Part shown: positions 18,259 to 40,500 of the stretch, piece after piece
How the letters are laid out: each line of letters opens with the position of its first letter
Position numbering within the stretch: position 1 is the stretch's first letter
Assembly: GCA_044221725.1 (NCBI GenBank)
Contig: JBGAON010000003.1
Coordinates: forward strand, 160,001 to 224,000
From: Elusimicrobiota bacterium
GTDB taxonomy: Bacteria > Elusimicrobiota > Elusimicrobia > F11
Direction of reading: 5' to 3'
DNA length: 64,000 nucleotides
Made by a program: the position numbers and the translations under genes
Notes under the pieces: generated by a model
What the model was told of the DNA's origin: nothing
The model's database searches: none
The model's input: only the letters and a program-made list of their open reading frames with translations

Positions 18259-19814
18259 GCAACAAGGCAAATCGCCTCATTATTTTTGATACCACGCTGC
18301 GGGACGGCGAACAGTCCCCGGGCGCCAGTCTCAACATTGAAGAGAAGATTGAGGTTGCCCATCAACTCGCGCGCTTAAACGTTGATGTTATTGAAGGCGG
18401 CTTCCCGATCACGAGCCCGGGCGATTTTGAAGCGGTCTCACAGATGGCCAAGAAAGTTAAAGGTCCCGAAATTTGTGGCCTCGCGCGTTGCGTGAAAAAA
18501 GACATCGACGCCGCGTGGGAAGCCGTCAAACATTCGAAGAAACCGCGTATCCACGTGTTTCTCGCGACAAGCGACATTCACATGGAGAAAAAACTAAAGA
18601 TGACGCGTCAGCAGGTGTTGGACCGCATCGCTGAAATGGTTGCCTACGCCTGCAAGTTTACTGGGAATGTTGATTTCTCTCCCGAAGATGCCGTGCGCAC
18701 CGATTTTCCGTTTCTCGTTCAGGCGGTAAAAACCGCGATCGAAGCTGGTGCGCGCACAATCAATGTGCCGGACACCGTCGGATATGCGATCCCCTTCGAG
18801 TTCGGAGGAATGATTAAGCGTTTGGTCACCGAGACCCCCGGAGCGGACAAAGCGATTTTTTCCGTCCACTGTCACAACGACTTGGGATTGGCTGTCTCAA
18901 ATTCATTGGCGGCGGTTCGAAATGGTGCGCTGCAGGTTGAGTGCACCATAAACGGTATCGGCGAGCGCGCTGGCAACGCTTCGCTTGAAGAAATTGTTAT
19001 GGCGCTCGCGACACGCAAAGATTTTTTCAATTTGGAAACGAATATTAAGACGGAGGAAATTTATCGAACGAGCCGTCTCGTTTCACGACTGACCGGAATG
19101 GCGGTTCAGCCGAACAAAGCCATCGTGGGCGCGAACGCGTTTGCGCACGAGTCCGGCATTCATCAAGATGGCGTGATTAAACATCGCCAGACGTATGAAA
19201 TCATGACACCCGAGTCGGTGGGCGTTCCGTCATCACAGATTATTCTCGGTAAATTGTCTGGGCGAAATGCGTTGCAGAAGCGCATGAAAGAGTTGGGGTA
19301 TGATCTCGACGGCAAACCGCTCGACGATTTTTTCGAACAGTTCAAGCAATTGTCCGACAAGAAAAAATACGTGTTTGATGAAGATTTGCTCACGTTGATT
19401 GAGGAGAAGGATGGCGCGGCTGCCGACCGCTACAAGTTGGAATATTTACAGACAAGTTCAGGAACTGGCGTCGTTCCAACGGCCACCGTACGTGTCTCGT
19501 TTAAGGGACAGCTATTTCAAGAGGCCGCGTGCGGCGATGGCCCCGTCGATGCTGTGTACAAAGCGATCGATAAGATCACAAAAATCGAGGTAAAACTTTT
19601 AGATTATAAACTGGCCGCTGTTTCCGGCGGAAAAGACGCGCAAGGCGAAGTGACAGTGCAGTTGGAAACGAAGTACGGATCGACGGTTCGTGGGAAAGGT
19701 GCTTCGACGGATATTATTGAGGCCAGTGCGAAGGCTTATCTATCAGCGGTGAACCGCGTCGAGGCAAAACGAACGGCAAAGCCGGCGGTTGATGCCCGTG
19801 TGGAAAAGGTTTAA
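18255..19814 (+). CDS. leuA: 2-isopropylmalate synthase
   Basis: DTTLRDGEQSPG, HCHNDLG, GERAGNA, HESGIHQDG; GTGA overlap with pssA. Confidence 0.96.
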   Translation: MSNKANRLIIFDTTLRDGEQSPGASLNIEEKIEVAHQLARLNVDVIEGGFPITSPGDFEAVSQMAKKVKGPEICGLARCVKKDIDAAWEAVKHSKKPRIHVFLATSDIHMEKKLKMTRQQVLDRIAEMVAYACKFTGNVDFSPEDAVRTDFPFLVQAVKTAIEAGARTINVPDTVGYAIPFEFGGMIKRLVTETPGADKAIFSVHCHNDLGLAVSNSLAAVRNGALQVECTINGIGERAGNASLEEIVMALATRKDFFNLETNIKTEEIYRTSRLVSRLTGMAVQPNKAIVGANAFAHESGIHQDGVIKHRQTYEIMTPESVGVPSSQIILGKLSGRNALQKRMKELGYDLDGKPLDDFFEQFKQLSDKKKYVFDEDLLTLIEEKDGAAADRYKLEYLQTSSGTGVVPTATVRVSFKGQLFQEAACGDGPVDAVYKAIDKITKIEVKLLDYKLAAVSGGKDAQGEVTVQLETKYGSTVRGKGASTDIIEASAKAYLSAVNRVEAKRTAKPAVDARVEKV

Positions 19815-20323
19815 TGGCCCGTCTTGTTCCGAAAGCCACTCCGGATGATGCGTGGAAGCAGTTATCACCAAACCGCGACTACGCGGTGTTGTGCAATCCT
19901 CAGGACACAATCTATTTTCGCTTTGGTCAGGGGCGAAGCATGTTTATGTCGCTCGAACCTTCGGCGACGGTTCGAACACTGAACAGTATCGATTTTGAAA
20001 ATGGCGAGCCCGCGCTTATAGCGAAGCTCAATCCCGATGAGAAAAATGTGCTGGGACGTACAAGCGACTGCTCCGTGAAAGTGATGCATGCGATCATATC
20101 GCGCCAACATTTGGAAATGATGCTGAAAGGCAACGTGCTCATCGTGCGGGATTTGGGTTCGACGAACGGAAGTTACATCAGTGTTCACAACAAACATTTT
20201 GATATCGAAGAATATTTGCAGGCACACCCATTGAAAGAAGCGCAAGAAAGCACAATGGATTGGGTCCATGAAGCGTTCGGGCCCGACATCGATACGTTTT
20301 TAAAAAATTACTCTGAGAAATAA
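19814..20323 (+). CDS. FHA-domain protein
   Basis: FHA signature residues GR...ISRQH...DLGSTNG. Confidence 0.8.
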   Translation: MARLVPKATPDDAWKQLSPNRDYAVLCNPQDTIYFRFGQGRSMFMSLEPSATVRTLNSIDFENGEPALIAKLNPDEKNVLGRTSDCSVKVMHAIISRQHLEMMLKGNVLIVRDLGSTNGSYISVHNKHFDIEEYLQAHPLKEAQESTMDWVHEAFGPDIDTFLKNYSEK

Positions 20324-22562: not shown

Positions 22563-23501
22563 ATGAGAAAAACGAGTCTAATTTTGGCGGTGTTTATGGT
22601 TTTTCCGGCTATCAGCGAAACACACGCTTGGAGCTGGGATTCTCCCGAAAATGTGATGCCCACATTGCGAGACGATCTCGACCGAGAAATTGCGGCGTAC
22701 CGTCAGCAGGTTTTAAACGGAATGGCTGTGCACGACCGGATCATCGCGCTCGACCGGCTAATTGACAACTACAAACCAATGGGAATAAATGTCGCCGAGC
22801 TTGAAACCGAACGGTCCCGCCTTGTGCTTGAAGAAAAACAGCAACAGTTGCGCACCTCTCAAGCTCAGGATCAAGCGACCATTCTTTTTGAACGCGGTGT
22901 TTCCGAGTACAAAGAAGGTCAATACGAAACCGCGCGTCAAACATTCCTCGAAGCCGAACGTCTTCTCCCTCAAGATTCTGCGATTAAGGAAACGCGTCGA
23001 CGATTGTCGAATGTGACGCCAATTCTCGAAGTCGAAGTCGGAGCCGGAAAAGATTCCCAGCTCATCCGTCTCGCGGTGACTCGTTATCTTGAAAACGATC
23101 CAAAGAGAGCGCTGAACGCATTGATTTACGCAAACGATAAAAAAATAGCGCGACCTGAAATTCCACGTCTTCGTCGTCTCATTGAAACCGATCATCCCGA
23201 AATCGAACCGCCGGCACTTCCAGCCGGTTTGTCGCTCGTGGATCACAAGTTGCAACTCACGCTCGAGGCGATTTACGACGGACGCTACCTGTCGGCCATC
23301 ACCGAGTGCACCGATGTTCTCGATTTGGAACCGACCAACGTAATGGCGCTTACGCGACTGGGGTCCGCTTATTTTGCCATGAACGAGCGCGAGAAAGCCA
23401 AGCAGATTTGGACGAAAGCGCTGCAATATGATCCGAACAACGAAGTTCTGAGAAAATTCTTGTATGGCTCAAAAGGATCTTCCCGTGTTGAAACGCGTTA
23501 A
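22563..23501 (+). CDS. secreted TPR-repeat protein
   Basis: Signal-peptide-like N-terminus (MRKTSLILAVF..THA); TPR-like helices (FERGVSEYKEGQYETA, ALTRLGSAYFAM..KAKQIWTKALQYDP). Confidence 0.75.
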   Translation: MRKTSLILAVFMVFPAISETHAWSWDSPENVMPTLRDDLDREIAAYRQQVLNGMAVHDRIIALDRLIDNYKPMGINVAELETERSRLVLEEKQQQLRTSQAQDQATILFERGVSEYKEGQYETARQTFLEAERLLPQDSAIKETRRRLSNVTPILEVEVGAGKDSQLIRLAVTRYLENDPKRALNALIYANDKKIARPEIPRLRRLIETDHPEIEPPALPAGLSLVDHKLQLTLEAIYDGRYLSAITECTDVLDLEPTNVMALTRLGSAYFAMNEREKAKQIWTKALQYDPNNEVLRKFLYGSKGSSRVETR

Positions 23502-25194
23502 CCAATATCTTCTGTTCATCGTTTTTTCCGCTGTCGTTCTGCTTGGCGGTTTTGCGAACGCCGAACTTTCGCTCGATAGCGAACGCCTGGATCTTGAAAT
23601 GAGAATGCAAAAGCGCGTGGAAGAAGCGCTTGGAAAAATTTTGCCGGAGGGGCAGTTCGTTGTCGTTATTCGCGTGGAGCCACTCGCCATTAAAGAATCC
23701 ACAAGCAAGAACGAGAAAGACGACAACGGTTTTTATCTGCCCGGTGTGCCCGTGAAAAAAAGTTTCGACTCGACCGGTGAGCAAATGCAAAACCTCGTCG
23801 ACACGCTAAAACCTGAATCAAAAATTTTCCAGCGTTTCATCAAACGCATCCAAGTCACCCTCGTTCTCGATCAGGCGACGGCGGATGATGTTGTGTCGAA
23901 GGTGCGCGAGCTCACGCGTCAAATGCTCAGTCTTGATTCCGAACGGGGCGATACGCTTGATATTCAGAAAACTGCGTTTTCGAAACCCACCGAGGTTCAA
24001 CTTTCGCCAACCGGAATTCTTAAATTGCAGAAAGACTTAAAAAATTACTGGCTGCTCATTCTCCTTGTGCTTGTTATTTTCTGCATCATCGTTTTTTTCT
24101 TGTTCATGTTTGGGCCGCTTCGCGGTTTCTTGAACAACTTCGTGCAAATCTTACCGACGCTCAAATCACAGGAAGCGGCGCGCGTCCGCATGGAGATGCC
24201 ATTTATTCCACCGTACATGAATCCGTACGGTTTGCCGGGACCGAACGGTCCCACCGTGGCCGCAGGAAATGCGGCGTTCTCAGGTTCGTTGCAAGTTGAG
24301 AATCCCAACAAAACCATCCTGCCGTTCGGATTTATTCGGGAAGATCATCTCGGAAATTTGGCAATTTTGTTGGCGCGTGAAGTGCCCGAAAAAGCGGCTG
24401 TCGTGCTCGGCTATTTGCCCCCCGATTGGATCAGCCGTGTACTGGCGCGTTTGGATCAGACAATGCAGTCGGATATTGCTGCTCATCTCGCTACAACCCG
24501 GCAGCTTCTCCCGGAACAAGTGGAAGACATCGAGCAGGATTTAAAACGCCGGCTCGATTATCTCGTGGGCGGGCCGGACCGCATCTTCGCGATTTATGAA
24601 TCACTCGAGCCTGAGGGGCAGAAGCGAATGCTCGATAGTCTTAAGGAATCACGCCCCGAAATTGTCGAAGAGCTTCGGCAACGAACGCTTTTGTTTGAGG
24701 ATCTTGAGCGCTTGGATTCGCCCGCGCTCAAATCTGTTTTGCGTGAAGTGGATTTGCAAACGATTGTGACCAGCTTGAAAGGCGTTACGGAGTCCTTCAA
24801 GACCCGCATCTTGGAACACATGTCCGAGGGCAAGGCAGAGATCGTAAGGCAAGAGCTTGACCTGAGCGACGCCAACGCCGTCGGAAAAGCCACGATGGAA
24901 GCGCAGCGTAAAGTGGTGCTTTTGGCCAAACGCCTTGAGCGCGAGGGACACATCCATATCCCGCACGTGACCGAGGGCGCCCCGCCAACGCGGTTCGGCC
25001 CATCGTTGCGTTCGACGCTCAAGTTGCCACCGGGGCTCAAGATTGACGATACCCTTCCGGTCGAACCGATTTCTTCGGAAACTCCGGCTCCGAAGGACAA
25101 CATCCAAGACCGTATTCGCAAATTTATTAGCCGACGCAACGACGATCGGGCCGAAAGATACCCGACCGACAAGCCGCCAAAAGATAGGAGATAA
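23464..25194 (+). CDS. membrane protein fusing a FliF-like ring-building domain to FliG middle and C-terminal domains
   Basis: N-terminal hydrophobic segment; FliF-RBM3-like IKRIQVTLVLD..LSLDSERGDTLDI..F; TM at about 24046-24115; FliG-M-like EVPEKAAVVLGYL; GG linker; FliG-C-like LFEDLERLD..VLREVD..HMSE; start could be 23485/23488. Confidence 0.75.
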   Translation: MAQKDLPVLKRVNQYLLFIVFSAVVLLGGFANAELSLDSERLDLEMRMQKRVEEALGKILPEGQFVVVIRVEPLAIKESTSKNEKDDNGFYLPGVPVKKSFDSTGEQMQNLVDTLKPESKIFQRFIKRIQVTLVLDQATADDVVSKVRELTRQMLSLDSERGDTLDIQKTAFSKPTEVQLSPTGILKLQKDLKNYWLLILLVLVIFCIIVFFLFMFGPLRGFLNNFVQILPTLKSQEAARVRMEMPFIPPYMNPYGLPGPNGPTVAAGNAAFSGSLQVENPNKTILPFGFIREDHLGNLAILLAREVPEKAAVVLGYLPPDWISRVLARLDQTMQSDIAAHLATTRQLLPEQVEDIEQDLKRRLDYLVGGPDRIFAIYESLEPEGQKRMLDSLKESRPEIVEELRQRTLLFEDLERLDSPALKSVLREVDLQTIVTSLKGVTESFKTRILEHMSEGKAEIVRQELDLSDANAVGKATMEAQRKVVLLAKRLEREGHIHIPHVTEGAPPTRFGPSLRSTLKLPPGLKIDDTLPVEPISSETPAPKDNIQDRIRKFISRRNDDRAERYPTDKPPKDRR

Positions 25195-25196
25195 CC

Positions 25197-25982
25197 ATGG
25201 ATTTGATGACGCTTCTCGGATGGGTCGTGGGTCTTGGAGCCATTGGATGGGTCCTTCAAGAAGGTGGCACCATTCACTTTTTTGTGAACGTTCGTGCGAT
25301 TGTGTTGGTGTTCGGCGGAACTTTTGGCGCAACGCTGATCACCTATCCGTGGGGAATTTTGAAGCGCATGCCGTCGTCACTTCTTTATTTCATATTCCCT
25401 GGACGTCGCGAGTCGGCGGACAGTTTGATGTCGCGCTTGTTGGCGTTGTCGAATCGCGCGCGTCGGACCGGCATGGAGAGCCTTGATCTCGACATGCGCG
25501 GCACACGCGATCATTTTCTCGCGAATGGTTTAAAAATGATTGCCGACGGATTGCCGCCAAACGTGGTTCGTTCGAATCTCGAGAAGGAAATTTATTTCAT
25601 TCGCTTGCGGCACGCCGAAATTTCAAACGTCTTTAGAAATATGGCCACGTACGCGCCCATTTTTGGTTTGCTGGGAACCTTGGTGGGCGTGGTCGAAGTC
25701 ATGCTAAATCTAACGGATCCGCGCACGATGGGCATGCACATGGCTGTCGCGATGACCGCCACGTTCTACGGAATTTTCGGCGCAAACTTTTTGTTTCTGC
25801 CGGTCGCTGGGAAGCTGCAATCTTATTCGGAGCAAGAAATCTTTCTTAAAGAAGTAACGATCGAAGGAATCTTGTCCATTCAGCGCCAAGAAGTTCCGGC
25901 CATCTTAACCCGTCGCCTGGAGTCCTATCTGAATCGGCGCAGCCGTACACGTATCGCCGATGAACGGAGAGACGCCGCTTGA
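25197..25982 (+). CDS. MotA-family stator A subunit
   Basis: IVLVFGGTFGA, RARRTGMESLD, APIFGLLGTLVG, ATFYG..ANFLFLPVAGKL, EGILSIQ. Confidence 0.9.
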   Translation: MDLMTLLGWVVGLGAIGWVLQEGGTIHFFVNVRAIVLVFGGTFGATLITYPWGILKRMPSSLLYFIFPGRRESADSLMSRLLALSNRARRTGMESLDLDMRGTRDHFLANGLKMIADGLPPNVVRSNLEKEIYFIRLRHAEISNVFRNMATYAPIFGLLGTLVGVVEVMLNLTDPRTMGMHMAVAMTATFYGIFGANFLFLPVAGKLQSYSEQEIFLKEVTIEGILSIQRQEVPAILTRRLESYLNRRSRTRIADERRDAA

Positions 25983-26635
25983 TTCATCGATTGATTCGTT
26001 TCAAAAACGATTCCCGACTCGAAACTATTTGGCTTACGATTTACGCGGATCTCATCACGAACATGATGCTGGTTTTCCTTGCGTTGTACGGATTAACTGT
26101 AATGGGAGATGACGCGCTCACACGTGCGGTTCAGTCGATGAGCTTGAACGATATTTACTCAATGAAGGAAACCAATCTTGATTTTTCTGATATCGCGCCG
26201 GCCTTGCGGCAGAAATTCAAGCAGCAAGCCGATATAAAGATTACCGAGGAAGTGGGTGTGGTGCACATTGAATTTGGGGAACAAATTCTTTTTGATTCCG
26301 GTCGGGCTGTGCCAAAAGGAAGCGCGATCGAGCCGGTCAGAGTGGTTGCCGATCTGATTAAACCGTTGCCGCACACCATTGTCGTTGAAGGACACACGGA
26401 CTCCAGTCCGTTGCAGCACGGAAATGGTTATCGCGACAATTACGAGCTCTCATTGGCGCGCTCAATGTCCATCGTTAATCTCCTGATCGCCGACGGTATT
26501 CCCGCGGATCAAATTGCCGCGGCTGCGTATGGCGAATATCGTCCGCGGGCTTCCAATAGCACGGCGTTGGGGCGTGGCGTCAATCGTCGGGTGGAGATCG
26601 CACTCTTTAAGGATTTCGGTTATGTCCATCGATGA
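25979..26635 (+). CDS. MotB-family stator B subunit 1 (TM plus OmpA-like peptidoglycan-binding domain)
   Basis: WLTIYADL TM helix with conserved Asp; LFDSG, VEGHTD, NYELSLARS, NRRVEI. Confidence 0.88.
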   Translation: MIHRLIRFKNDSRLETIWLTIYADLITNMMLVFLALYGLTVMGDDALTRAVQSMSLNDIYSMKETNLDFSDIAPALRQKFKQQADIKITEEVGVVHIEFGEQILFDSGRAVPKGSAIEPVRVVADLIKPLPHTIVVEGHTDSSPLQHGNGYRDNYELSLARSMSIVNLLIADGIPADQIAAAAYGEYRPRASNSTALGRGVNRRVEIALFKDFGYVHR

Positions 26636-27338
26636 GAACGAAGAGGGATTAGGGGCGTCCGAGCCGCTTCCTCTGTTTGAGGAAGACGACGCAGACGCGC
26701 ATGCGTCCGAAGCCGGTGAGGACGTTGACTCAGAATACATTCTGCGACGGCAACAGCCCGAGCGTCGAGCTCCGCGCCAACTTTGGCTCATTTCCTATTC
26801 GGACTTTATGACAATCCTTATGATTTTCTTTCTCGCAATGTACGGTTATACGTATCTTGCCAAGGCCGCTCTGTTAAAGAATGAAAAGAAAATTTCGAAT
26901 TACTCGCAGTTCACGACGCAGATACAAGAATTGCAGAAATCGCTCGGCAGTCAGCTACGAGTTCAAAACGACGTGGACAAAATCGTGATACAGCTCAGCG
27001 ACAAAATTCTTTTTGCCAGCGGCAGCGCCTCCGTCGAACCGGCCGCCGGGCCCACACTTGAAGAATTGGCCAATTCAATTAAGCTGGTGGACGGTGACGT
27101 CATCGTTCAAGGCCACACCGACAATGTTCCGATTCGTGGCGGTCGTTACAGGTCGAATTGGGAATTGTCAACGGCCCGAGCGTTTTCAGTAATCAAAAGA
27201 TTAACCGAGGCGGGCGTGCCCGCGCAGCGTCTGGCCGCGTGGGGACTTGGAGAGAACAGGCCGATCACGGACAATTTAACGCCCGAGCATCGCGCCGAGA
27301 ACAGACGCATTGAAGTCGTGATTTTGAAGAAGAAGTAA
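26622..27338 (+). CDS. MotB-family stator B subunit 2
   Basis: WLISYSDFMT TM helix with conserved Asp; LFASG, QGHTD, NWELSTARA, NRRIEV; acidic N-terminal tail. Confidence 0.88.
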   Translation: MSIDENEEGLGASEPLPLFEEDDADAHASEAGEDVDSEYILRRQQPERRAPRQLWLISYSDFMTILMIFFLAMYGYTYLAKAALLKNEKKISNYSQFTTQIQELQKSLGSQLRVQNDVDKIVIQLSDKILFASGSASVEPAAGPTLEELANSIKLVDGDVIVQGHTDNVPIRGGRYRSNWELSTARAFSVIKRLTEAGVPAQRLAAWGLGENRPITDNLTPEHRAENRRIEVVILKKK

Positions 27339-27349
27339 AAAGGGGAATT

Positions 27350-28354
27350 ATGGCCGGTGAGCGCATCCTTATAATAGATGACGATGAGCAAGTCGCTTCC
27401 TATTGTCGTTTGGCGTTCACGCTGGCCGGATACCAGGTGGAGTGGATTAAAGACGGGCGCCAGGCGGTGCAGAAAGTGCGTGAAATGATTCCCGACGCCG
27501 TCATTCTCGATTTGAAGTTGCCCGGCATAAACGGTTTCCGAATTTGCGAACAACTTCGCTTGGAGCCTCAGACGCGCGCGATCCCTATTATCGTCGTGAG
27601 CGGCAGCTGGAAAGATTCGCAGGATCGCATTCGTTCGATCGAGGTCGGCGCCGATGATTTTCTCACAAAGCCGTTTGACGCCGAAGAACTGATTGCGCGG
27701 ATCAAACGCATGTTGCAGCGAAAGAAAGTTGATATGGGGCACAACCCGCTCACGGGTCTTCCCGGAAATCTTGCCATCGAAGAAGAGGCGCGGCGCCGGC
27801 TTGCACGGAAAGATCCGCTCGCGTTCGCGTATATCGACCTCGACAATTTCAAAGCCTACAACGATGTGTATGGCGTAAAACAAGGCGACAAAGTTATTCG
27901 ATTGCTAGCCGACTTGTTGGTCCAAGCCACGAAGCGGTGGGGAAATCAGGACGATTTCATTGGCCATGTTGGCGGAGACGATTTTATCGGAATGACAACG
28001 CCGGACAAAGCGCAAGCCGTGTTCGAATGGATTGCCAAGCGCTTCGACGAACGGATTGCCGCCTATTATTCGGAAGCCGATTTAAAAGCGGGTTGTATCA
28101 CGGCCAAAGACCGTCAAGGAAACGTGAAGAAATTCCGATTCGTTTCTGCTTCGATCGTTTATTTGACCGACAAAAACATTGAGACGAATCAATACCCGTT
28201 ATTGATTCAGGCGCTCACCGAAATGAAAGGATTTGTTAAACACACCATGGAACGCAAAGGCGGAAGCGTCGTGTTTCGGGATCGGCGTAGCACCGAAGAG
28301 CCGCCATCCAAAACGATTTCTGCCCCGATTCCAAAAACAAAACCCGCCGCTTAG
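27350..28354 (+). CDS. response regulator with GGDEF-like (GGDDF) output domain
   Basis: REC domain (DDD, ILDL, KPF) followed by NPLTGLPGN, DLDNFKAYND.YG, GHVGGDDF. Confidence 0.9.
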   Translation: MAGERILIIDDDEQVASYCRLAFTLAGYQVEWIKDGRQAVQKVREMIPDAVILDLKLPGINGFRICEQLRLEPQTRAIPIIVVSGSWKDSQDRIRSIEVGADDFLTKPFDAEELIARIKRMLQRKKVDMGHNPLTGLPGNLAIEEEARRRLARKDPLAFAYIDLDNFKAYNDVYGVKQGDKVIRLLADLLVQATKRWGNQDDFIGHVGGDDFIGMTTPDKAQAVFEWIAKRFDERIAAYYSEADLKAGCITAKDRQGNVKKFRFVSASIVYLTDKNIETNQYPLLIQALTEMKGFVKHTMERKGGSVVFRDRRSTEEPPSKTISAPIPKTKPAA

Positions 28355-28523: not shown

Positions 28524-28594
28524 GCGGGTGTGGTTCAATGGTAGAACGCGAGCCTTCCAAGCTTGAGACGTGGGTTCGATTCCCATCACCCGCT
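28524..28594 (+). tRNA. tRNA-Gly(TCC), CCA not encoded
   Basis: Acceptor stem GCGGGTG/CACCCGC; anticodon arm CGAGC-CT TCC AA-GCTTG; GTTCGA T-loop. Confidence 0.95.
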
Positions 28595-28597
28595 AAC

Positions 28598-28670
28598 GCT
28601 GGGGTAGCTCAGTTGGTAGAGCACGTCCTTGGTAAGGACGAGGTCGGCAGTTCGATCCTGCTCCCCAGCT
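28598..28670 (+). tRNA. tRNA-Thr(GGT), CCA not encoded
   Basis: Acceptor stem GCTGGGG/CCCCAGC; anticodon arm CGTCC-TT GGT AA-GGACG; standard position before tuf. Confidence 0.95.
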
Positions 28671-30137: not shown

Positions 30138-30208
30138 GGGAGTGTCGGTTAATGGCAAACCACCGGTCTCCAAAACCGGGACTGTAGGTTCAAGTCCTAC
30201 CACTCCCG
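30138..30208 (+). tRNA. tRNA-Trp(CCA), CCA end not encoded
   Basis: Acceptor stem GGGAGTG/CACTCCC; anticodon arm CCGGT-CT CCA AA-ACCGG; discriminator G. Confidence 0.93.
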
Positions 30209-32175: not shown

Positions 32176-32676
32176 ATGGCTGATACACAAGAACCAACGC
32201 TCCAACAGCCCGAACTTACCCGACGCTCCTTCCTTTTGTGGGGATGGGGCGCTTTTCTCGCATTCCTTGCTTCGTCGGCCGGATCTGTTCTCCGCTTTTT
32301 CTTGCCAAACGTTCTCTACGAACCATCCCAAAAATTCCGCGCCGGCAAGGTTGTGGATTATCCTCTTGGCGTAACGATCGACAAAGCGCACCGCGTCTGG
32401 ATTATTCGCAACGACCAAGGTTTGTACGCGATGTGGGCGCGTTGCACGCACCTTGGTTGCACACCGAACTGGTTTCCCGCTGAATCTCGCTTTCGTTGCC
32501 CGTGTCACGGCTCCAACTTTTCTGCCGCCGGAGATGTGATCGCCGGTCCGGCACCAAAACCTCTTTGGCGTGTGCAAGTCACACAAACCCCGCAGGGTGA
32601 ACTCGTCGTCGATAAAGCCATCATGGAGAATCGTCCGGGCGTGCGGGAAAAACCACCGTTCTTCATTAATGTATAG
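32176..32676 (+). CDS. Rieske 2Fe-2S subunit of a bc-type complex
   Basis: Tat motif TRRSFL plus TM helix; CTHLGC and CPCHGS boxes. Confidence 0.93.
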
Positions 32677-32687
32677 TACGTCCCTTC

Positions 32688-34328
32688 ATGTTCCAAAAAC
32701 TCGATCCTAAGAAGCTTTTCGAAGATTTAACAAACACACAGGTCTGGCGCTCCATGTTCCGCGGTGGAACATGGAAAGACACGTCGCGTGACCGCGCGCA
32801 ACACATTCTTGGCAATGTTTGGTTGCACTTGCATCCAGCCCGCATCCGCCGTCGCGGAGTAAAGTTTACCTACACCTGGGGTTTGGGCGGCCTTTCTTTC
32901 TTCCTGTTTCTTGTTCTCACCGTGACCGGCATTGTGCTTATGTTCTATTACCGTCCAACGCCGGACTTGGCCTACCGCGATATGAAAGATTTGGAATTTG
33001 TCGTTTCGATGGGAAAATTCATGCGCAACATGCACCGCTGGTCTGCGCACACGATGGTTCTGTTTGTGATCTTGCACATGGTTCGCGTGTTTCTCACGGG
33101 GGCGTACAAAACCCCGCGCGAATTCAACTGGGGTGTCGGCGTCGTTCTTCTCGTCATCACTCTTTTCCTGTCGTTTACCGGTTATCTACTCCCATGGGAT
33201 CAATTGGCCATTTGGGCCGTTACGGTTGGAACCAACATGGCGAGCGCCTCGCCGTTTCTTGGAGCGGAAGGCCCGTTTTCAGCGTTATTGGGCGTCGGTC
33301 TTAAGAACGACGCGCGTTTCGGCCTTCTCGGTGGAACGGCGGTCGGATCCGCGACACTGGTTCGGTTTTACGTTTTGCATTGCATCGCGGTCCCGGTCAT
33401 TGCTGGTATTTTTATGATTGTGCATTTCTGGCGTATTCGCAAAGATGGATTTTCCGCAGCCCCAATCGACAACGAACCACCAACGCAAAAGATTGAAGTG
33501 TGGCCAAACCTCGTAGTTCGCGAATATCTCGGTGCAATTCTCATGTTGATCTTCTTGGTTGGTTGGTCGTTTCTTCAGAACGCACCCCTCGAAGGCATCG
33601 CGGATCCGAACGTGACACCGAATCCTTCCAAGGCGCCGTGGTATTTCTTGGGTCTTCAAGAGTTGCTCGTCTATTTTGATCCGTGGATTGCCGGCGTGGT
33701 TTTGCCGACGATCATTATGATTGGCCTTATGGCAATTCCCTATTTGGATCCGGATCCAAACCGTGGTGTCGGTTTTTATTCGTTCAAAGAACGCCCGTTT
33801 GCAAACATTATTTTCTTGGCTGGCATTTTCGCGTGGTTCGCGTTGATTGTCATCGGCACGTTCATGCGAGGACCGAACTGGCAGTGGTACTGGCCTTGGG
33901 AAAGTTGGCTTATTCACAAGGCGCCACCGCCGCCAACATCCATTATGCCGCTGGCTCTTGGCGCGCCGCTTATTGCAATTTATTTTGCGGTGGGAATGGT
34001 GCTACCGTTATTAATTAAGTGCGAAATTAACGTGAAGTCCTCTGTGAAAAAGATTTTTGGCGGTGCTTTTCTGTTGGCGCTCATTGTTGGGGTGTTACCG
34101 AGCTTTACGTTCGTGCAGGGCGCATGGGTTGGGTTTGGTGTAGGTCTTTATTTAATCATGGGCGTCATTTTGCCGACGCACTATTTGAAGGGCATCAGCA
34201 AGATCCGTTACACCGTGTGCATGGCGTTGTTGTTGATGATGATCGGCGTTTTCTTGAAGGTGACGCTGCGCCTTGGATTTAACATCAAATATATTGTTTC
34301 CATCCCACAAGTTAGCTTGAACGTCTAA
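32688..34328 (+). CDS. cytochrome b (b6-like N-terminal part fused to subunit IV-like part, extra C-terminal TMs)
   Basis: Four heme His (MHRW..ILH; LHC..IVH), [15 protein letters not shown]. Confidence 0.92.
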
Positions 34329-34329
34329 C

Positions 34330-35640
34330 GTGAAAATAGAAAATAAATTTCTCCAAAAATTGTTCATGCTGCGCTACTTATTTTTGTGGGGCAACGTTAT
34401 TCTCTTGTTGCTTTTTGTGGCCGTGCTCGTTCGAGACAATTGCCGCGGTTGGAAAGACTATCAAGTCGAATTCAAAAAGCGTGAAGTAGCGAAAGCGCAA
34501 GAAAAAGTTAATAACGCGCCGACCTCCGAGGCGAAAGAAGTGGCCCTCCAAGAACTGAAACAAGCAAAAAAGATGCCGATTGAGGTGCGCCAGATTTGGA
34601 CTCAGGAGATGAACGCCGTTGACCGTTGCATAACCTGTCACTTGGGCTACGATCCACTTCAAAACAGTTCTCTCACCACCGAGTACAAAGAGCATCCTTA
34701 CAGTGCCACCGGTGCTTCACCGGGTTTTGATATTCATAAAGCACACAATCTCGAAAAATTTGGTTGCGTTGTTTGCCACGGCGGACAAGGTCTGGCGACC
34801 GAAGTGAAAGCCGCGCACGGCGAAGTCGAACATTGGGAAAAGCCGCTCTTGAAAGGGGTTTTGCTCGAAGCGTCGTGCGTCAAATGCCACGATAACCATG
34901 CTGATTTGAAGATCAATGGAGAGATTTATACCGCCGACATCGTTCGCGCAAAAAAATTGTTCCGCGATAACGGTTGTATCGGTTGCCATCAAGTGGGTGG
35001 TGAAGGTGGTGTGATTTCCGTCGATTTGAAAGAAGAAACGTCGAACAAGCCGCTCAGTCGAATCGATTTTTCCCACACCGGATTGGATAAAGAACAGCGG
35101 ACGCTCGCGAATTGGATTAAGGTGCACCTCGTGAAAGATCCCGTGGATGTGACGCCGGGCGATCCAACAGCATCGTTCAACACCGAACCGATTGCGCCAT
35201 CCGGCATGCCGCCCTATTTGATGTCTGAAAAAGACGCCGATGCGCTGACCGCATGGGTGTTGAGCTTGAACCGACAAGGTATTCCGCCTCAATTCTTGAC
35301 GTTGCGGCCGCCGGAAGCGGAGCCCAATATTAGTGGTGCCGTGGCGAAGGGTCGCTACGTGTATGACAAGTTTGGTTGCGCCGCATGCCACGGTGCCGAC
35401 GCGCGCGGTGGAATTCGGGATTACAATGCGCAGTACGACGTTACACCGAATCTCCGTCGTGTGGTGGGGACTTACACACGCGAAGAGATCAAATCGAAAA
35501 TTTCGGAAGGTGTTCCGTTTATCGCGAAACACGATCCCAACGGGCCGACCCCGCCGTTTTACATGCCGGCGTGGAAGTCCAAGATCAAGGGCGACGACTT
35601 AGAGAACCTCGTCACTTACTTGCAGAGCATAAAAGAATAA
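34330..35640 (+). CDS. membrane-anchored pentaheme cytochrome c
   Basis: N-terminal TM; CITCH, CVVCH, CVKCH, CIGCH, CAACH. Confidence 0.92.
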   Translation: MKIENKFLQKLFMLRYLFLWGNVILLLLFVAVLVRDNCRGWKDYQVEFKKREVAKAQEKVNNAPTSEAKEVALQELKQAKKMPIEVRQIWTQEMNAVDRCITCHLGYDPLQNSSLTTEYKEHPYSATGASPGFDIHKAHNLEKFGCVVCHGGQGLATEVKAAHGEVEHWEKPLLKGVLLEASCVKCHDNHADLKINGEIYTADIVRAKKLFRDNGCIGCHQVGGEGGVISVDLKEETSNKPLSRIDFSHTGLDKEQRTLANWIKVHLVKDPVDVTPGDPTASFNTEPIAPSGMPPYLMSEKDADALTAWVLSLNRQGIPPQFLTLRPPEAEPNISGAVAKGRYVYDKFGCAACHGADARGGIRDYNAQYDVTPNLRRVVGTYTREEIKSKISEGVPFIAKHDPNGPTPPFYMPAWKSKIKGDDLENLVTYLQSIKE

Positions 35641-35682
35641 TTAGCCCTAGCTTTGCGTGGAATTTTCGATCAAGATGTAACT

Positions 35683-35760
35683 GGCTATCAGTTATCAGCT
35701 ATCGGCTGTCAGCCAGAAAGAATTTGAATATTGATAGCTGAAAGCTGAGAGCTGACAGCC
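35683..35760. repeat. inverted array of heptamer repeats (4x GCTATCA-like, spacer, 4x TGANAGC)
   Basis: GCTATCA GTTATCA GCTATCG GCTGTCA at 35684-35711; TGATAGC TGAAAGC TGAGAGC TGACAGC at 35732-35759. Confidence 0.85.
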
Positions 35761-35762
35761 AA

Positions 35763-37133
35763 ATGGCCGACGACAAATTTGACGTAATTGTAGTAGGAGC
35801 CGGACCCGCGGGAACATCCGCGGCGATTACCGCTGCAAAACTGGGATTGAACGTGGTGTTGCTTGAGCGCGGCGAATATCCTGGTTCGAAAAACGTGCAA
35901 GGCGCTGTGCTTTACACGAAAAATCTCGCCGACATCCTTCCTGAATTCTGGAAAGACCCGACCGCACCGCTGGAACGTTACATCACGACCCAAAACGTGA
36001 TGATCGCTTCTGATGATTCCGCAATCCAAGTTGGTTTTCGTTCGGATAAATGGGTTCAAGAGCCGCACAACTGCTACACGATTATTCGTGTGAATTTCGA
36101 CAAGTGGTACGCGAAAAAAGCGGAAGAGGCGGGCGTGCAACTTTTTACGGGTGTCAGAGTTTCGAAAGTCCTTCAAAAAGACAAAAAAGTCATTGGCATT
36201 GAAACGAGCGAAGGAGATCAGCTCTTCGCCGATGTCGTAATCGCCTGCGATGGCGTGAATTCGATGATTGCGCAATCGATCGGGCTGATCGATGAACTGC
36301 GTTCCGATGAAGTGGCGCTCGGCGTGAAAGAAGTGCTCGCGCTTCCAGAGGGCCGAATTCAAGATCGTTTCGCTCTTGAGAAGGGGGAGGGAGCGACGTT
36401 TGAAATTTTTGGTGGCGTGACGCGTGGAATGCTTGGTTACGCATTTCTTTATACAAATAAAGAGTCCATTTCTTTTGGTGTCGGTTGCAAGTTGTCGCAT
36501 TTCCAGCGAACGAACGCGCGCCCTTATGAATTGCTTGAAGCGGCCAAGAAACATCCCATCATCCGCCGATATCTTGCCGACGCCAAGCCGATCGAATATT
36601 CTGCGCACTTGATTCCGGAAGGAGGCTATTATTCTTTGCCGCCGCTTTACACCGACGGCTTTATGATTGCCGGCGATGCTGCGCAAATGATCAATCCATC
36701 GCACCGTGAAGGTTCAAATCTCGCAATGACGGCTGGCATGCTGGCCGCCCAAACGGCCGCCGAAGCAAAAAAGAAAGGGGATTTTTCGAAAGCGACGCTG
36801 GTTGAATATCAAAGGAAGCTCGAAGCATCTTTTGTGATTCCCGATATGGAAGACCATAAAGATTTGGAACACAAAATTGAGCGCAACATGGATTTGATCA
36901 CCGTTTATCCGGAGCTGGCCGCTCGTGCGCTGTACGAATACTTTACCGTTGACGGGCGTACCAAGAAGGATGTTCAAAAAAGTATTTTCCGCCGCATCCT
37001 CAAGACGCGATCCGTGAAAAATATTGTTCGTGACGTTTGGGGAATGGTGCACGCCGATGAGAAGAAGCCAACCGTGTGGGGTCTCATCAAAGAACTTTGG
37101 AAAATGAAAAGTGCATTTAAGAGGTTTGGATAA
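35763..37133 (+). CDS. fixC: FixC-family FAD-dependent ETF:quinone oxidoreductase
   Basis: GAGPAG, LERGEYPGSKN, FLYTNKES, EYSAHLIPEGG, GDAA; coupled to fixX. Confidence 0.88.
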   Translation: MADDKFDVIVVGAGPAGTSAAITAAKLGLNVVLLERGEYPGSKNVQGAVLYTKNLADILPEFWKDPTAPLERYITTQNVMIASDDSAIQVGFRSDKWVQEPHNCYTIIRVNFDKWYAKKAEEAGVQLFTGVRVSKVLQKDKKVIGIETSEGDQLFADVVIACDGVNSMIAQSIGLIDELRSDEVALGVKEVLALPEGRIQDRFALEKGEGATFEIFGGVTRGMLGYAFLYTNKESISFGVGCKLSHFQRTNARPYELLEAAKKHPIIRRYLADAKPIEYSAHLIPEGGYYSLPPLYTDGFMIAGDAAQMINPSHREGSNLAMTAGMLAAQTAAEAKKKGDFSKATLVEYQRKLEASFVIPDMEDHKDLEHKIERNMDLITVYPELAARALYEYFTVDGRTKKDVQKSIFRRILKTRSVKNIVRDVWGMVHADEKKPTVWGLIKELWKMKSAFKRFG

Positions 37134-37456
37134 TGGACGAAAAAAAAACAGAGAAGATTGACGTCAATATTGACGACAAGCTCGGCATGTTGACGTACAA
37201 AGCCGACCACAGTTTTGCTCACATTAAGATCAAAGATGCATCCGCGAATAGTCCGTGCGTGACAACCTGCAAAGAAAAACCGTGCACGCAAGTTTGCCCC
37301 GCGCGCGTTTACACGTGGGAAGAAGCACAGAAGAAAATTCTCGTCGCCTACGAGAACTGCATTGAGTGCGGTGCTTGCCGCATGTTGTGCCCGTTCGACA
37401 ATATTGCATGCGAATGGCCGCGCGGCGGCTTTGGCGTGCAGTACAAATTGGGCTGA
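37133..37456 (+). CDS. fixX: FixX-family ferredoxin
   Basis: C..KPC...CPA, ENCIECGAC...CP, WPRGGFGVQY. Confidence 0.9.
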   Translation: MDEKKTEKIDVNIDDKLGMLTYKADHSFAHIKIKDASANSPCVTTCKEKPCTQVCPARVYTWEEAQKKILVAYENCIECGACRMLCPFDNIACEWPRGGFGVQYKLG

Positions 37457-37521: not shown

Positions 37522-40500
37522 ATGGAAACGCCCCGTTTCGTTCGCGTAGTTGCTGGTTCGCTTTCGATTGTTTATCTCGCCACGAATTGCTTGTTCGCCG
37601 GTCGCGTGGAAGGGAACATCTGGCAGGAAAGGCGACCGTCGTCGGCCCCGAATGTTTTCATCCAGCGTCCCCGTATTCCTGCGGTACACACGGATCTTGG
37701 CTTGCGACGTGCGAGCATGATGGCATTGGCCCGCTTCGGCACCATTCGCAACGTTCAAAAATCCACTCATCCTTCTCCAAAAAATCCCGTGGTGCTCCAT
37801 GTTCAAGACGTTCACATGAACAGCGAAGCACAAAGAAATATTTCCGGAGCTCTTCAACAGCTGATTGACAATGAAAAGGTACGGCTGCTGGCATTGGAAG
37901 GGGCTTTTCATTCAATCGATTTAACGCCGTTTCGTAAATTTCCCGATCGAACGAGTGTTTTCAACGTTGCGGATTACATGTTGCAAGAAGGAAAAATTTC
38001 CGGTGCCATTCATGCCGCGGTCTTCGCTGAAAAAACAGTCTCGACGATTGGTATCGACGATTTTGGCCATTACAATGCAAATGTGGAAGCCGTACAAAAA
38101 TCGTTCGCGGCATCGAAAGAATTAAAACCGGAGATCCTGCGCTACGTGAACGATCTCGAAAAGAAAAAACAACAGACATTTGATTCTTCGCTGCTTCGGT
38201 TCGATAACACCGTGCAACAATATCGTAACCAGTCGCTTTCGTTGGGAGATTACGCTTCGGCGCTTTCTCGGATCGTGGATGCATCGTCGAGCGTGAAAAC
38301 ATTTCTCAAAGCACGTCGTCTCGAGTCAATCATTGATTTCTCTGCGGTCGCGCGCGCGCGTGCCGAGGCGCGTGAGAAAAATATTTCCCCGATCCATTTC
38401 CCATCGTTGATGCTTTACGATGATTACTTGCGAGCGGCAAAGTCAATTGATTCGGATGCGTTGGCGAACGAGTTGGAACACATGGAAAGCGCGGCGTTTA
38501 AAAAGCTTTCGCGAACACCGGCGGAGAGAGAGTTGATTGCGCAATCGCGCCGACTTTATCTGCTTGAGAAGCTTGTGAATTTTTCTCTGACCAAAAATGA
38601 GTGGGACGAATACGAGAACGAGCATCGTTCCGCGTGCGCTATACCTCACGAAAGGATTCAGCCGTTTGAGGCGTTTTATATGGAAGCGGAATATCGTGAC
38701 GCCGCGATGGCGATGAACTTTTTAAATCAAATCAATGAGATAAATGATGCAGACCAAAGCACCTTTGTGTTGGTCACCGGCGGCTTCCATTCTTCCGGCA
38801 TCGACAAACGCCTCGGCGACGCAGGCTGTACCGTGGTGACATTTATTCCAAAGATCACGAAGATCGACACCGTAAACGGTTCCGCGTATCTCAGTGTGTT
38901 TGCGCAAGAAAAATTTTCGCTCGATAAGCTGTTCGAAGGAGAAAAAATTTTCCTTTCGCCTTCGCCGATGTCGAAAAGCGCATTCGGATTGTTCGCCGTG
39001 CTTGTGGCGAGCGTTGCGCTGCTCACCAACGCAGTCTCCAGCGGGATTGCCGCTTCGTGGCTTCAATCAACACTGGCAATGAACGATCTTTCAATTGCAA
39101 AAGCAGGGGCGAACGCGGTGAACATTGTCTTTGGACTTTATGGCGCGCACCTTGGCATCACGTTCTTGAGCGGAGCCGCAGGGGCGATTCGGCCAGAGCT
39201 TTCTATTGCCCGCCAGAAACCGGATTTCGGTCGCTGGTTCCCTTCTTCAATTCGGGAATCACTCGAGCACTTCATGCCGTGGTTCGTGCCGCAGCACATT
39301 GCGATTCGGCGGTGGCCGCTGTGGATTGGTTACGCAATGATTGTCACGTGTGGCGTTGCGTTTCCGGTTCTTTTTTCTGAGTTTGTCTCTGTCGTTCCCT
39401 CCGAAGTGTGGATGTGGACGGGCGGTGTTGTTGCGCACGAATTTTATAACCGGCTGGCAAAAGTTATGGGTTGGCCCATGTTGACCCGTGTGGTTCTTGC
39501 CCAAGATTTTTTAACGGCCGAACAGGAACAGAGCTTGGCTCGCGAAATGGATTCAATATTCGATTCGATGTTGCCGGTGCTGCTGGATAATGAAAAAGCC
39601 CAAGATTTGTTGCTTCGTCTTCTCAAGTCCGATTTGCACAGAAGAATAAATCTGAATCTTGTCATCCAGGCGGATGTGCAGGCGCACAAAAAGGGAAAAT
39701 TTTGGATTCGGCCTGGTTTGACTGCCAAAAACAACGTTCGAATTGCAGACCTCATTCAAGTCCTAACTCGCACTCCCAGTTCCGAGCTTTATGCGCAGAT
39801 CAAAGATTGGCATGAAAAAAACAACGATCTTTCTTTGAATTTGAGGAATTTGACGTTGAGATTTTTGCACGGATTTCGAGAGCTTTCTTATTCTGAGAAA
39901 CAACAACGACAGATTTCGAATTGGATAAGAACCTATGAAGATACAAGGAACATGCTGGTACGACCTTATGTGGGCATCGTCACCGGTCTTGCAAAAAAAT
40001 TTACAAGACAAGGACTGTCAATCGATGAATTGGAATCTGAGGGCTACAGTGGATTGCTTGCGGCGGCCGAACATTATCGCGTTGGGTTTGGACGTTTCAG
40101 CACTTTTGCGACTCCATCAGTGAGAAGAAGCATGCGCGTCGCTGTGTTGCGGAAGGCAAAAGAGAACGCGCCCGAGCGCACGCTGACGGAGTCGATCGCT
40201 GGCGAAGAAATTGATTACGATTCATCGAAATACGAGGAATTATTGAAGCAGGTGTATCAATTGCCGCGGCGAGATCAATTTGTGTTGTCTCAATATTACG
40301 GATTGAATGGCCTGGACCCGGAAAAGCTTGAACAAGTGGGGCGTCGCCTGGGTTTGTCGGTGGAACGAATTCGCCAAATAAGAAACCGCGCGCTGGATAG
40401 GCTTCGAGAGCGCCTGACGTCGCCGACAGGCGAACTTCGGGAGGAAGAAGAGGGTGCGCCTATCTCGAAAAAGCTGAACAGACAGAACGTTATTGATATG

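Follow-up and report, generated by a model that had tools for sequence, protein, structure and literature searches.

The stretch analysed here (the window), 64,000 nucleotides of contig JBGAON010000003.1 from a bacterium of the phylum Elusimicrobiota, carries a gene whose product joins in a single chain the ring-building domain RBM3 of the flagellar protein FliF, a transmembrane helix, and the middle and C-terminal domains of the rotor protein FliG (FliG-M and FliG-C). This fusion gene belongs to a cassette in which a TPR gene, the fusion gene, motA, two motB genes and a gene for a receiver (REC)-GGDEF protein follow each other with short gaps or overlaps throughout, the start of the fusion gene overlapping the end of the TPR gene (Table 1). 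The fusion frame is open throughout, real and intact. A Shine-Dalgarno-like AAGGA lies 7 nucleotides 5′ of the GTG at 23485, none is present 5′ of the ATG at 23464, and the public gene call is of 569 amino acids (P0002); the true start is therefore probably residue 8. Every motif quoted in the original prediction, which had been made from the letters of the window, is present in the 576-codon translation: RVEEALGKIL (residues 51-60), IKRIQVTLVLD (126-136), ERGDTLDI (160-167), EVPE (306-309), the GG pair (369-370), LLFED (409-413) and the torque helix MSEGKAEIVRQELD (453-466). Besides the fusion itself, 56 homologues with 52-76% identity were retrieved, the named ones from Elusimicrobia, and all 10 loci from a scan of GTDB belong to Elusimicrobiota.

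The periplasmic part was compared with known ring-building domains. On the window fusion alone the Pfam family YscJ_FliF_C gave a weak match (E 0.0044), and 40 of 52 family members matched it at E ≤ 0.05. A profile of the family retrieved from the PDB Salmonella FliF residues 240-471 (E 1.3e-9), SpoIIIAG (E 3.5e-4) and also Vibrio FliF; in hhalign, five FliF proteins of flagellated relatives were matched over their RBM3 at 97.5%, and language-model features gave 0.90 to YscJ_FliF_C clusters. In the AlphaFold model of the full-length protein (mean predicted local distance difference test, pLDDT, 74; predicted template modelling score, pTM, 0.38; domains placed independently), residues 37-170 form an alpha-beta-beta-alpha-beta arrangement, and residues 35-173 align to FliF RBM3 with Z scores of 11.0-12.9 and root mean square deviations of 2.0-3.8 Å over 94-102 residues. 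The score of 12.9 is that of Salmonella RBM3, with lower values for EscJ/PrgK (8.7-8.8) and SpoIIIAG (8.1). The attempt to refute an RBM fold in this domain thus failed, by profile and by structure alignment alike, and, as in FliF, the ring domain is followed by a transmembrane helix. The original prediction also saw no space for RBM1 and RBM2. Pfam YscJ_FliF, which represents them, has no match in the fusion, and about 30 residues precede the RBM helix. Among 69 fusion ORFs (open reading frames) from fetched loci, from which two incomplete ORFs and one duplicate locus had been removed and to which the L095 region, without a called fusion ORF, contributes nothing, the median is 38 residues (range 21-96, with mechanically called starts), so there is indeed no room for the two domains. 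The insert within RBM3 has 52 residues in the window fusion (median 64, family range 32-139), mostly at pLDDT <50, compared with about 110 for the full beta-collar insert (271-381 in Salmonella) according to the accessible part of PMC11673145, which also assigns the M-ring core to RBM2. In two relatives, P0201 (847 amino acids) and P0205 (836 amino acids), a histidine kinase (HisKA-HATPase) stands ahead of RBM3-FliG; in these two, what precedes RBM3 cannot be just an N-terminal signal peptide.

The cytoplasmic part is FliG. Pfam FliG_M matches residues 299-365 (E 8.5e-13) and FliG_C residues 392-499 (E 2.7e-21), residues 285-499 align to Thermotoga maritima FliG-MC (PDB 1lkv, E 4.6e-31), and TIGR00207 matches residues 288-499 (E 7.7e-30, below its equivalog cut-off), covering positions 112-328 of the 338 in the profile. 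We considered MgtE-N as an alternative identity for the C-terminal part and ruled it out: MgtE_N reaches E 8.6e-7 as against 2.7e-21 for FliG_C, Foldseek ranks 1-15 are all FliG with no MgtE among the rows listed, and a Pfam scan of the fusion found no CBS or MgtE membrane domain. A hidden FliG-N was likewise rejected, as the TIGR00207 match begins at profile position 112 and the linker (residues 233-280, mostly pLDDT <50) has no structure in the model; a Pfam FliG_N match below cut-off (residues 308-396, E 8.7e-5) overlaps with the FliG-M match and does not represent a domain of its own. The proposal that a Pro/Gly linker replaces FliG-N agrees with both results, and profiles and fold together uphold the whole architecture, RBM3, transmembrane helix, linker, FliG-M and FliG-C without RBM1/RBM2 or FliG-N. 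FliG-M is connected with FliG-C by the GG hinge (G369 in 69/69 and G370 in 68/69 fusions), and in the LLFED stretch Phe and Asp hardly vary. At the EHPQ(R) positions, which we take to be the FliM-binding motif, E is kept in 63 and P in 57 of the 69 fusions, and those of H and Q are variable, with His outside the top five residues at its own position; one canonical relative reads EHPQ.

The stator genes of the cassette are of the flagellar type: MotA is full-length with its cytoplasmic domain, and MotB has the channel Asp, plug and OmpA domain. Among 28 loci with tandem motB genes, the first MotB keeps the Asp in all 23 that could be read (5 were unreadable). In the accessible text of PMC12505986, E. 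coli rotor and stator are paired through MotA R90 with FliG D288/D289 and through MotA E98 with FliG R281. These positions were mapped via alignments to T. maritima FliG and solved MotA structures. The D288 and D289 positions are Glu in 49/69 and 44/69 fusions, and the R90 position is K/R in 44/45 MotA proteins; judged from these alignments, the R90-D288/D289 pair is mostly kept. At L079 and L080, two fusion cassettes that differ from each other stand in tandem within about 7 kb. Promoter and terminator scans gave chance-level results only. Rfam, run on the window and on L001, a locus that does not include the 5′ end of the second operon described below, returned three tRNAs only and no cyclic di-GMP riboswitch. 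Three RNA runs from one wastewater study and one run of undefined kind gave short shallow contigs over the cassette and its flanks equally; with the flanks covered equally and DNA carry-over possible, they are no evidence of cassette expression.

Table 1. Features of the cassette, with positions in the window.
Feature	Position	Strand	Remarks
Periplasmic TPR-module protein, 312-314 amino acids	22557..23501	+	N-terminal hydrophobic leader, helical domain, conserved TPR module of about 208 amino acids
FliF(RBM3)-transmembrane-FliG(M,C) single-chain protein, 576 codons	23464..25194	+	Probable start GTG 23485
Hydrophobic leader ending ANA/E, likely a cleaved signal peptide	23485..23562	+	Pattern judgement, no predictor
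RBM3-like ring-building domain, residues 35-173	23566..23982	+	Profiles, hhalign, AlphaFold, structure alignment
Conserved LPGVP loop in shortened RBM3 insert	23737-23751	+	
Transmembrane helix, residues about 195-216	24046..24111	+	Followed by conserved FGP motif and short helix
Pro/Gly-rich low-confidence linker replacing FliF tail and FliG-N	24160..24312	+	
FliG-M and GG hinge	24319..24573	+	EHPQ reads EVPE; Pfam, PDB, alignment
FliG-C domain	24637..24960	+	Pfam, PDB, alignment
Torque helix in FliG-C	24820-24861	+	Gly at R281 position, Q/E at D288/D289 positions
MotA, full-length flagellar type	25197..25982	+	R90-type charge kept (R89); E98 position is D97
MotB 1	25979..26635	+	Transmembrane helix with channel Asp (IYADL), plug, OmpA peptidoglycan-binding domain
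MotB 2	26622..27338	+	Transmembrane helix with Asp (SYSDF), plug, OmpA domain; start ATG 26622 inferred
Receiver and GGDEF-like domain (GGDDF)	27350..28354	+	Same place in 6 other distinct close loci

The context of the fusion proved the weightiest part of the analysis: the TPR module, the two motB genes, the outer-membrane barrel and tailed cargo found at most loci, and a lost R281-type charge were all absent from the original prediction. The TPR module of most relatives is the C-terminal tail of a PorV-like barrel. A TPR gene lies at most two genes upstream in 54 of the 69 fusion genes, barrel-fused in 45 of these 54. Around the 69 fusion genes we counted a TPR module in 61, a PorV-like gene in 51, motA in 46 and, within four genes upstream, a protein with a type IX secretion system (T9SS)-like tail in 37; these counts are lower bounds, the ORF caller having missed some motA and motB genes. 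In one locus (L052) the barrel and a TPR protein of the window type are adjacent separate genes. Weak similarity links the N-terminal helices of window-type TPR proteins to the tails of further PorV-like proteins, among them one encoded on the same contig about 30 kb upstream (E 2.8e-4). A cluster elsewhere in the genome (G000:C5:149475-154245, locus L135) holds a 494-amino-acid tailed protein, two PorV-like genes and a 133-amino-acid tail-only frame, and the tail of its 526-amino-acid barrel weakly resembles the N-terminus of the window TPR protein; genes like those of L135 sit within the cassette in family f15. Sequence distances of paired RBM3 and TPR modules correlate (Spearman 0.67, 54 pairs), which is not counted as support since joint inheritance would produce it.

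This genome (2.82 Mb, 93.9% complete) contains 26 PorV-like ORFs, with 20 PorV-family matches over cut-off, and 21 ORFs whose tails match FlgD_ig, CHU_C or Por_Secre_tail weakly to moderately. A PorV-like gene lies within 1.5 kb of 18 of the 21 tailed ORFs, so cargo and barrel occur in pairs. One of the 26 PorV-like ORFs carries the TPR module, namely that between an 8005-amino-acid tailed frame and a second fusion gene (G000:C3:259739-261631). The second copy is 26% identical to the first, has 630 amino acids and ends in a cytoplasmic TPR tail. Its cassette region (G000:C3:233798-267700, partly L001) reads: the 8005-amino-acid frame with a FlgD_ig-type tail, a PorV-family barrel with a TPR tail to which the window TPR protein is homologous, the fusion, two coiled-coil-like genes (583 and 900 amino acids), flbD, motA and motB. 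A frame of 8776 amino acids ending in a T9SS-type tail begins in the window (55703-64000), and a tailed frame of 13703 amino acids lies elsewhere in the genome. A SprA-like protein of 1799 amino acids is encoded at G000:C4:344418-349817 (L107:9419-14818), its match lying below cut-off; two genes that look LptF/G-like by eye adjoin it.

Flagellin, FlhA and FliM/N (FliMN_C) were not found in this 93.9%-complete genome, in searches whose controls matched in 4/14, nor was a flagellar rod protein. FliMN_C was found in only 5 of 201 genomes of the phylum, all flagellated, and this distribution, together with the varying H and Q of the EHPQ motif, agrees with the original claim of a ring without FliM/CheY switching.

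The 201 genomes are one even sample of Elusimicrobiota from 31 families. The fusion profile matches 65 of them, from 26 families, with 1-6 matches per genome, and long open frames with the conserved motifs occur in 25 of the 31 families. Two large families of mostly small genomes stand apart: the fusion is absent from f2 (0/59) and, apart from a single match to a 348-amino-acid frame of plain FliG size, from f12 (0/63), and neither MotA nor the TPR module was found in either. Over the whole sample, 73 genomes gave MotA, 65 the TPR module, 6 rod genes and 5 FliM/N. Of the 65 fusion-positive genomes, 64 have MotA, 62 have fusion, MotA and TPR module together, and 2 have FliM/N; these two (G062 and G119) are also the only ones with rod genes, and both encode a separate full-length FliF. 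The full architecture was checked in the 69 ORFs and in 119 long representatives rather than in each of the 65 genomes, and search negatives are imperfect, since in three flagellated genomes the canonical FliG escaped the fusion profile. When a profile of RBM3 and the transmembrane helix was used alone (150 matches listed of 3939), FliG-MC was present in 115 of the 119 representatives of at least 430 amino acids. In a quick tree with long branches, one branch separates the 69 fused FliG parts from canonical FliG (8 sequences, of which four come from flagellated Elusimicrobiota) with a support of 99 in the Shimodaira-Hasegawa-like approximate likelihood ratio test (SH-aLRT), so the fusion family is old and not a recent copy of a local flagellar gene. 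The family reaches Nitrospirota (UCG78113.1, MDA8100271.1, MEK6744435.1). Of 10 clusters of divergent representatives looked up, 4 yielded an organism. Metagenome loci of the Nitrospirota type, on contigs that carry no taxonomy, have the order fusion, motA, motB, motB and a 432-amino-acid TPR protein (fully called in L122 and L124), and such cassettes (L119, L122, L124, L127, L129, L132) lie among multiheme cytochrome, NHL-repeat and RCC1-repeat genes; one cytochrome there carries an OmpA domain. In the ESM Atlas, look-alike clusters of 478-717 amino acids with FliG_C carry the labels Cloacimonadota, Bdellovibrionota and Bacteroidota, while that of a cluster of 362 amino acids with YscJ_FliF_C and FliG_M is Thermodesulfobacteriota; with their labels unconfirmed, these clusters are candidates for widening the family.

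By the features that define membership, the fusion is neither a FliF, nor a FliG, nor a part of a flagellum; what it works like is the flagellar rotor-stator core (FliF 6scn, 8zdt; FliG 1lkv, 8umd; MotA5B2 8ucs, 9lu9). With that core it shares the RBM3 fold, transmembrane helix, FliG-M, GG hinge and FliG-C, and its cassettes share the full-length MotA, the MotB with plug and OmpA domain, and flbD beside one stator operon. Unlike it, the fusion is one chain with no RBM1/RBM2 or FliG-N, a short collar insert and a likely cleaved leader, and the cassette system has no FliM/N, rod, export gate or filament that we could find, has lost the R281-type charge, often has two different motB genes and has a dedicated TPR partner. 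The FliF-FliG protein of Chlamydiaceae (Bergeron 2016, PMC4768692) is, from the part of that paper available to us, also a natural chain in a non-flagellated bacterium with FliG-M behind a transmembrane helix, and NF004606 weakly matches residues 299-338 of the window fusion (E 0.015). The chlamydial protein, of about 330 amino acids, has RBM2 but no SpoIIIAG-like domain, and only FliG-M is reported for it there, whereas the window fusion has retained RBM3 as well as FliG-C, the torque domain, and is encoded next to stators. Engineered FliF-FliG fusions (PMC6079021, as far as its consulted passages go; PDB 8z4d) share the covalent joint and form rings, one fusion mutant being motile but chemotactically defective; they keep RBM1-3 and act within a whole flagellum with FliM/FliN. 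The T9SS and gliding motor of Bacteroidota (SprA, PorV, GldLM, GldKN) is, in the sources sampled, a proton-driven motor that acts on a ring connected with barrels and with tailed proteins of the surface, and this genome has SprA-like, PorV-family and tail-like sequences in common with it. Unlike the T9SS, the cassette motor and ring are of flagellar ancestry, the ring would lie in the inner membrane, GldL, GldM and GldN were not found (in searches without a positive control), the SprA-like match is below cut-off, and cassettes also occur without barrel or cargo. Orphan motAB, flbD and fliG genes in Elusimicrobiota without flagella, with an enigmatic role, are described in the accessible portion of 10.1101/2022.07.08.499144; these are very likely the genes of the cassette, and a fusion relative is present in Ca. 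Obscuribacterium magneticum DUR003 (L014). In the passages covered, supplements excluded, that study treats them as plain fliG and motAB, and the RBM3 fusion, the TPR module and the barrel go unmentioned. The RBM3-FliG-MC chain is not described in the portions at hand of PMC13277936, PMC12505986, PMC11673145 and PMC12204202, and a literature search gave no account of the chain or the cassette, although supplements and subscription papers could hold one.

Taken together, we consider it likely that the fusion forms a ring driven by stators, and likely too that the system is a small ion-driven rotor that would move envelope or surface proteins and not serve swimming. The domain anatomy, the gene order, the co-occurrence of fusion, MotA and TPR module, and the failure to find rod, export, filament or switch genes are observations; for the ring, its rotation, its docking and its output we infer the following sequence of events. 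By analogy with the flagellum, RBM3 would assemble the fusion into an inner-membrane ring with RBM3 outside the membrane and FliG-MC on the cytoplasmic face, the covalent link standing in for the joint between FliF tail and FliG-N, and MotA5B2 units anchored in peptidoglycan, whose B chains are perhaps of two kinds, would engage FliG-C. These neighbouring stators would turn the ring one way and, as there is no FliM/FliN, without a CheY switch. From gene order, the TPR module may dock on the ring, possibly at the LPGVP loop, and in most Elusimicrobiota the TPR-fused PorV-like barrel would carry a T9SS-tailed protein; in the window, where no barrel is fused to it, the adaptor would bind a separately encoded partner. 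Rotation may then move or spin the tailed cargo, most plausibly for surface movement, or act on another periplasmic load. This full account, a stator-driven switchless ring with a mechanical output through a TPR adaptor, we put at close to an even chance. More tentatively, the cassette may have descended separately from the flagellum as a motor only, with export and filament discarded, and would then be the mirror image of the injectisome. On this view five genes (one-chain ring, MotA, two MotB, TPR adaptor) would make up a minimal rotary machine that takes hold of outer-membrane barrels and spins or shifts giant secreted proteins, which would provide Elusimicrobiota with surface motility without flagella and do other jobs in Nitrospirota.

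Several observations weigh against a mechanical rotor with surface cargo. The window cassette itself has neither barrel nor tailed cargo. The 37/69 count for tailed cargo is partly circular, because the tail profile was built from these very neighbourhoods. Neither the PorV nor the tail profile matched in any of 10 metagenome loci of the Nitrospirota type; a link to cargo is thus not general, and the constant core is ring, stator and TPR module. The counts of co-occurrence overstate independence, the genomes being kin. In the window fusion, the counterpart of the beta-collar insert of FliF is short and mostly at pLDDT <50. In the alignments, the E98-R281 pair is lost on both rotor and stator sides: the R281 position is Gly in 57/69 fusions and in 36/36 Nitrospirota-type proteins, and the E98 position is acidic in only 17/45 MotA proteins. 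The Arg is retained in four canonical FliG from flagellated relatives, and the subfamily of the window has an invariant Lys one place past this position (K457). The matched loss on both partners suggests that rotor and stator are still in contact, and it may mean low torque. Finally, the second MotB has Asn or Ser instead of Asp in 9 of 25 readable loci; the Asp pattern of the two proteins hints at an asymmetric B dimer.

The lost charge pair and the second MotB without Asp could also be read as signs of a load or contact sensor, which would do little mechanical work and whose stator engagement would be read by a kinase or diguanylate cyclase as surface contact or envelope state. The REC-GGDEF gene that follows the cassette in the window and in 6 other distinct close loci, the HAMP histidine kinase cluster present in 10 fusion loci and the kinases fused ahead of RBM3-FliG in P0201 and P0205 are in line with this. 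However, MotA and the TPR module stay the same across lineages in which the signalling neighbour changes, the Asp of the first MotB and the other charge pair are kept, and regulators next to a motor may simply control it; we regard a sensor as unlikely. We give somewhat less credence, as improbable, to a role as energiser of T9SS-like export, in which ring and stators would take the place of PorLM/PorKN and draw tailed cargo across the SprA-like translocon or away from it. The 1799-amino-acid SprA-like protein, the PorV-family matches and the tailed ORFs of this genome fit such a role, as does the scarcity of GldL (a single weak match across 201 genomes), with GldL, GldM and GldN all undetected here; these searches had no positive control, no control genome gave a match, and GldK was not searched. 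Against it, SprA-like genes occur in 178/201 genomes, including 57/59 of f2 and 43/63 of f12, in which neither MotA nor the TPR module was found, so the cassette machine is not needed for general export, and the Nitrospirota-type loci lack a detectable barrel or cargo. An obligatory energiser of the T9SS is therefore ruled out in its general form; an energiser for very large cargo alone is conceivable.

A static scaffold or relic, that is a non-turning ring that organises the envelope or assists type IV pili, or decaying flagellar remnants, would explain the lost R281-type charge, and Uzun et al. suggest, in the text accessible to us, a link between orphan MotAB and twitching (10.1101/2022.07.08.499144); a search with a prepilin pattern gave 0 matches, the pattern being too crude to inform. 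We judge this very unlikely, as the frames are long and open with conserved motifs in 25/31 families, occur 1-6 times per genome and in a second phylum too, the split from canonical FliG (SH-aLRT 99) points to an old family, and the stator channel residues are kept. That the fusion is a normal flagellar rotor made as one chain, with the other flagellar genes absent from the assembly, is largely refuted and almost certainly wrong: all its parts are flagellar homologues, and at 93.9% completeness the absence of flagellar genes is not proven, but no flagellin, FlhA or FliM/N was found here, rod and FliM/N genes accompany the fusion in only 2/65 genomes, both with a separate full-length FliF, and the fusion is without RBM1/RBM2, while RBM2 forms the M-ring core in the consulted portion of PMC11673145.

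A natural one-chain rotor with its own stators would, if true, be the smallest test bed for MotAB turning FliG. We know of no FliG-driven rotation outside the flagellum, and a literature search found none. Such a rotor would allow tests of whether a ring of FliG holds together and rotates in the absence of FliM/FliN, of which charge pair is dispensable, and of what sets ring size without RBM1/RBM2 and an export gate; all cassette genes are small enough for laboratory expression in E. coli. It bears on the existence and selection of a motor core apart from the filament. For the motility genes that lack an explanation in free-living and magnetotactic Elusimicrobiota, it is a concrete candidate.

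Directly 3′ of the cassette, the window carries tRNA genes (28524-28670 and 30138-30208), then tuf and ribosomal protein genes. Upstream, a 169-amino-acid FHA-domain gene (19814-20323) lies between leuA-like and leuB-like genes and is kept in 6 close loci. At 32176-37456, Rieske-like, cytochrome b-like and multiheme cytochrome c genes precede a flavoprotein and a ferredoxin that, judged by eye, presumably resemble FixC/FixX. They are followed (37522-43413) by a 1963-amino-acid protein with apparent sigma-70-like, kinase-like and methyltransferase-like stretches, as judged by eye.

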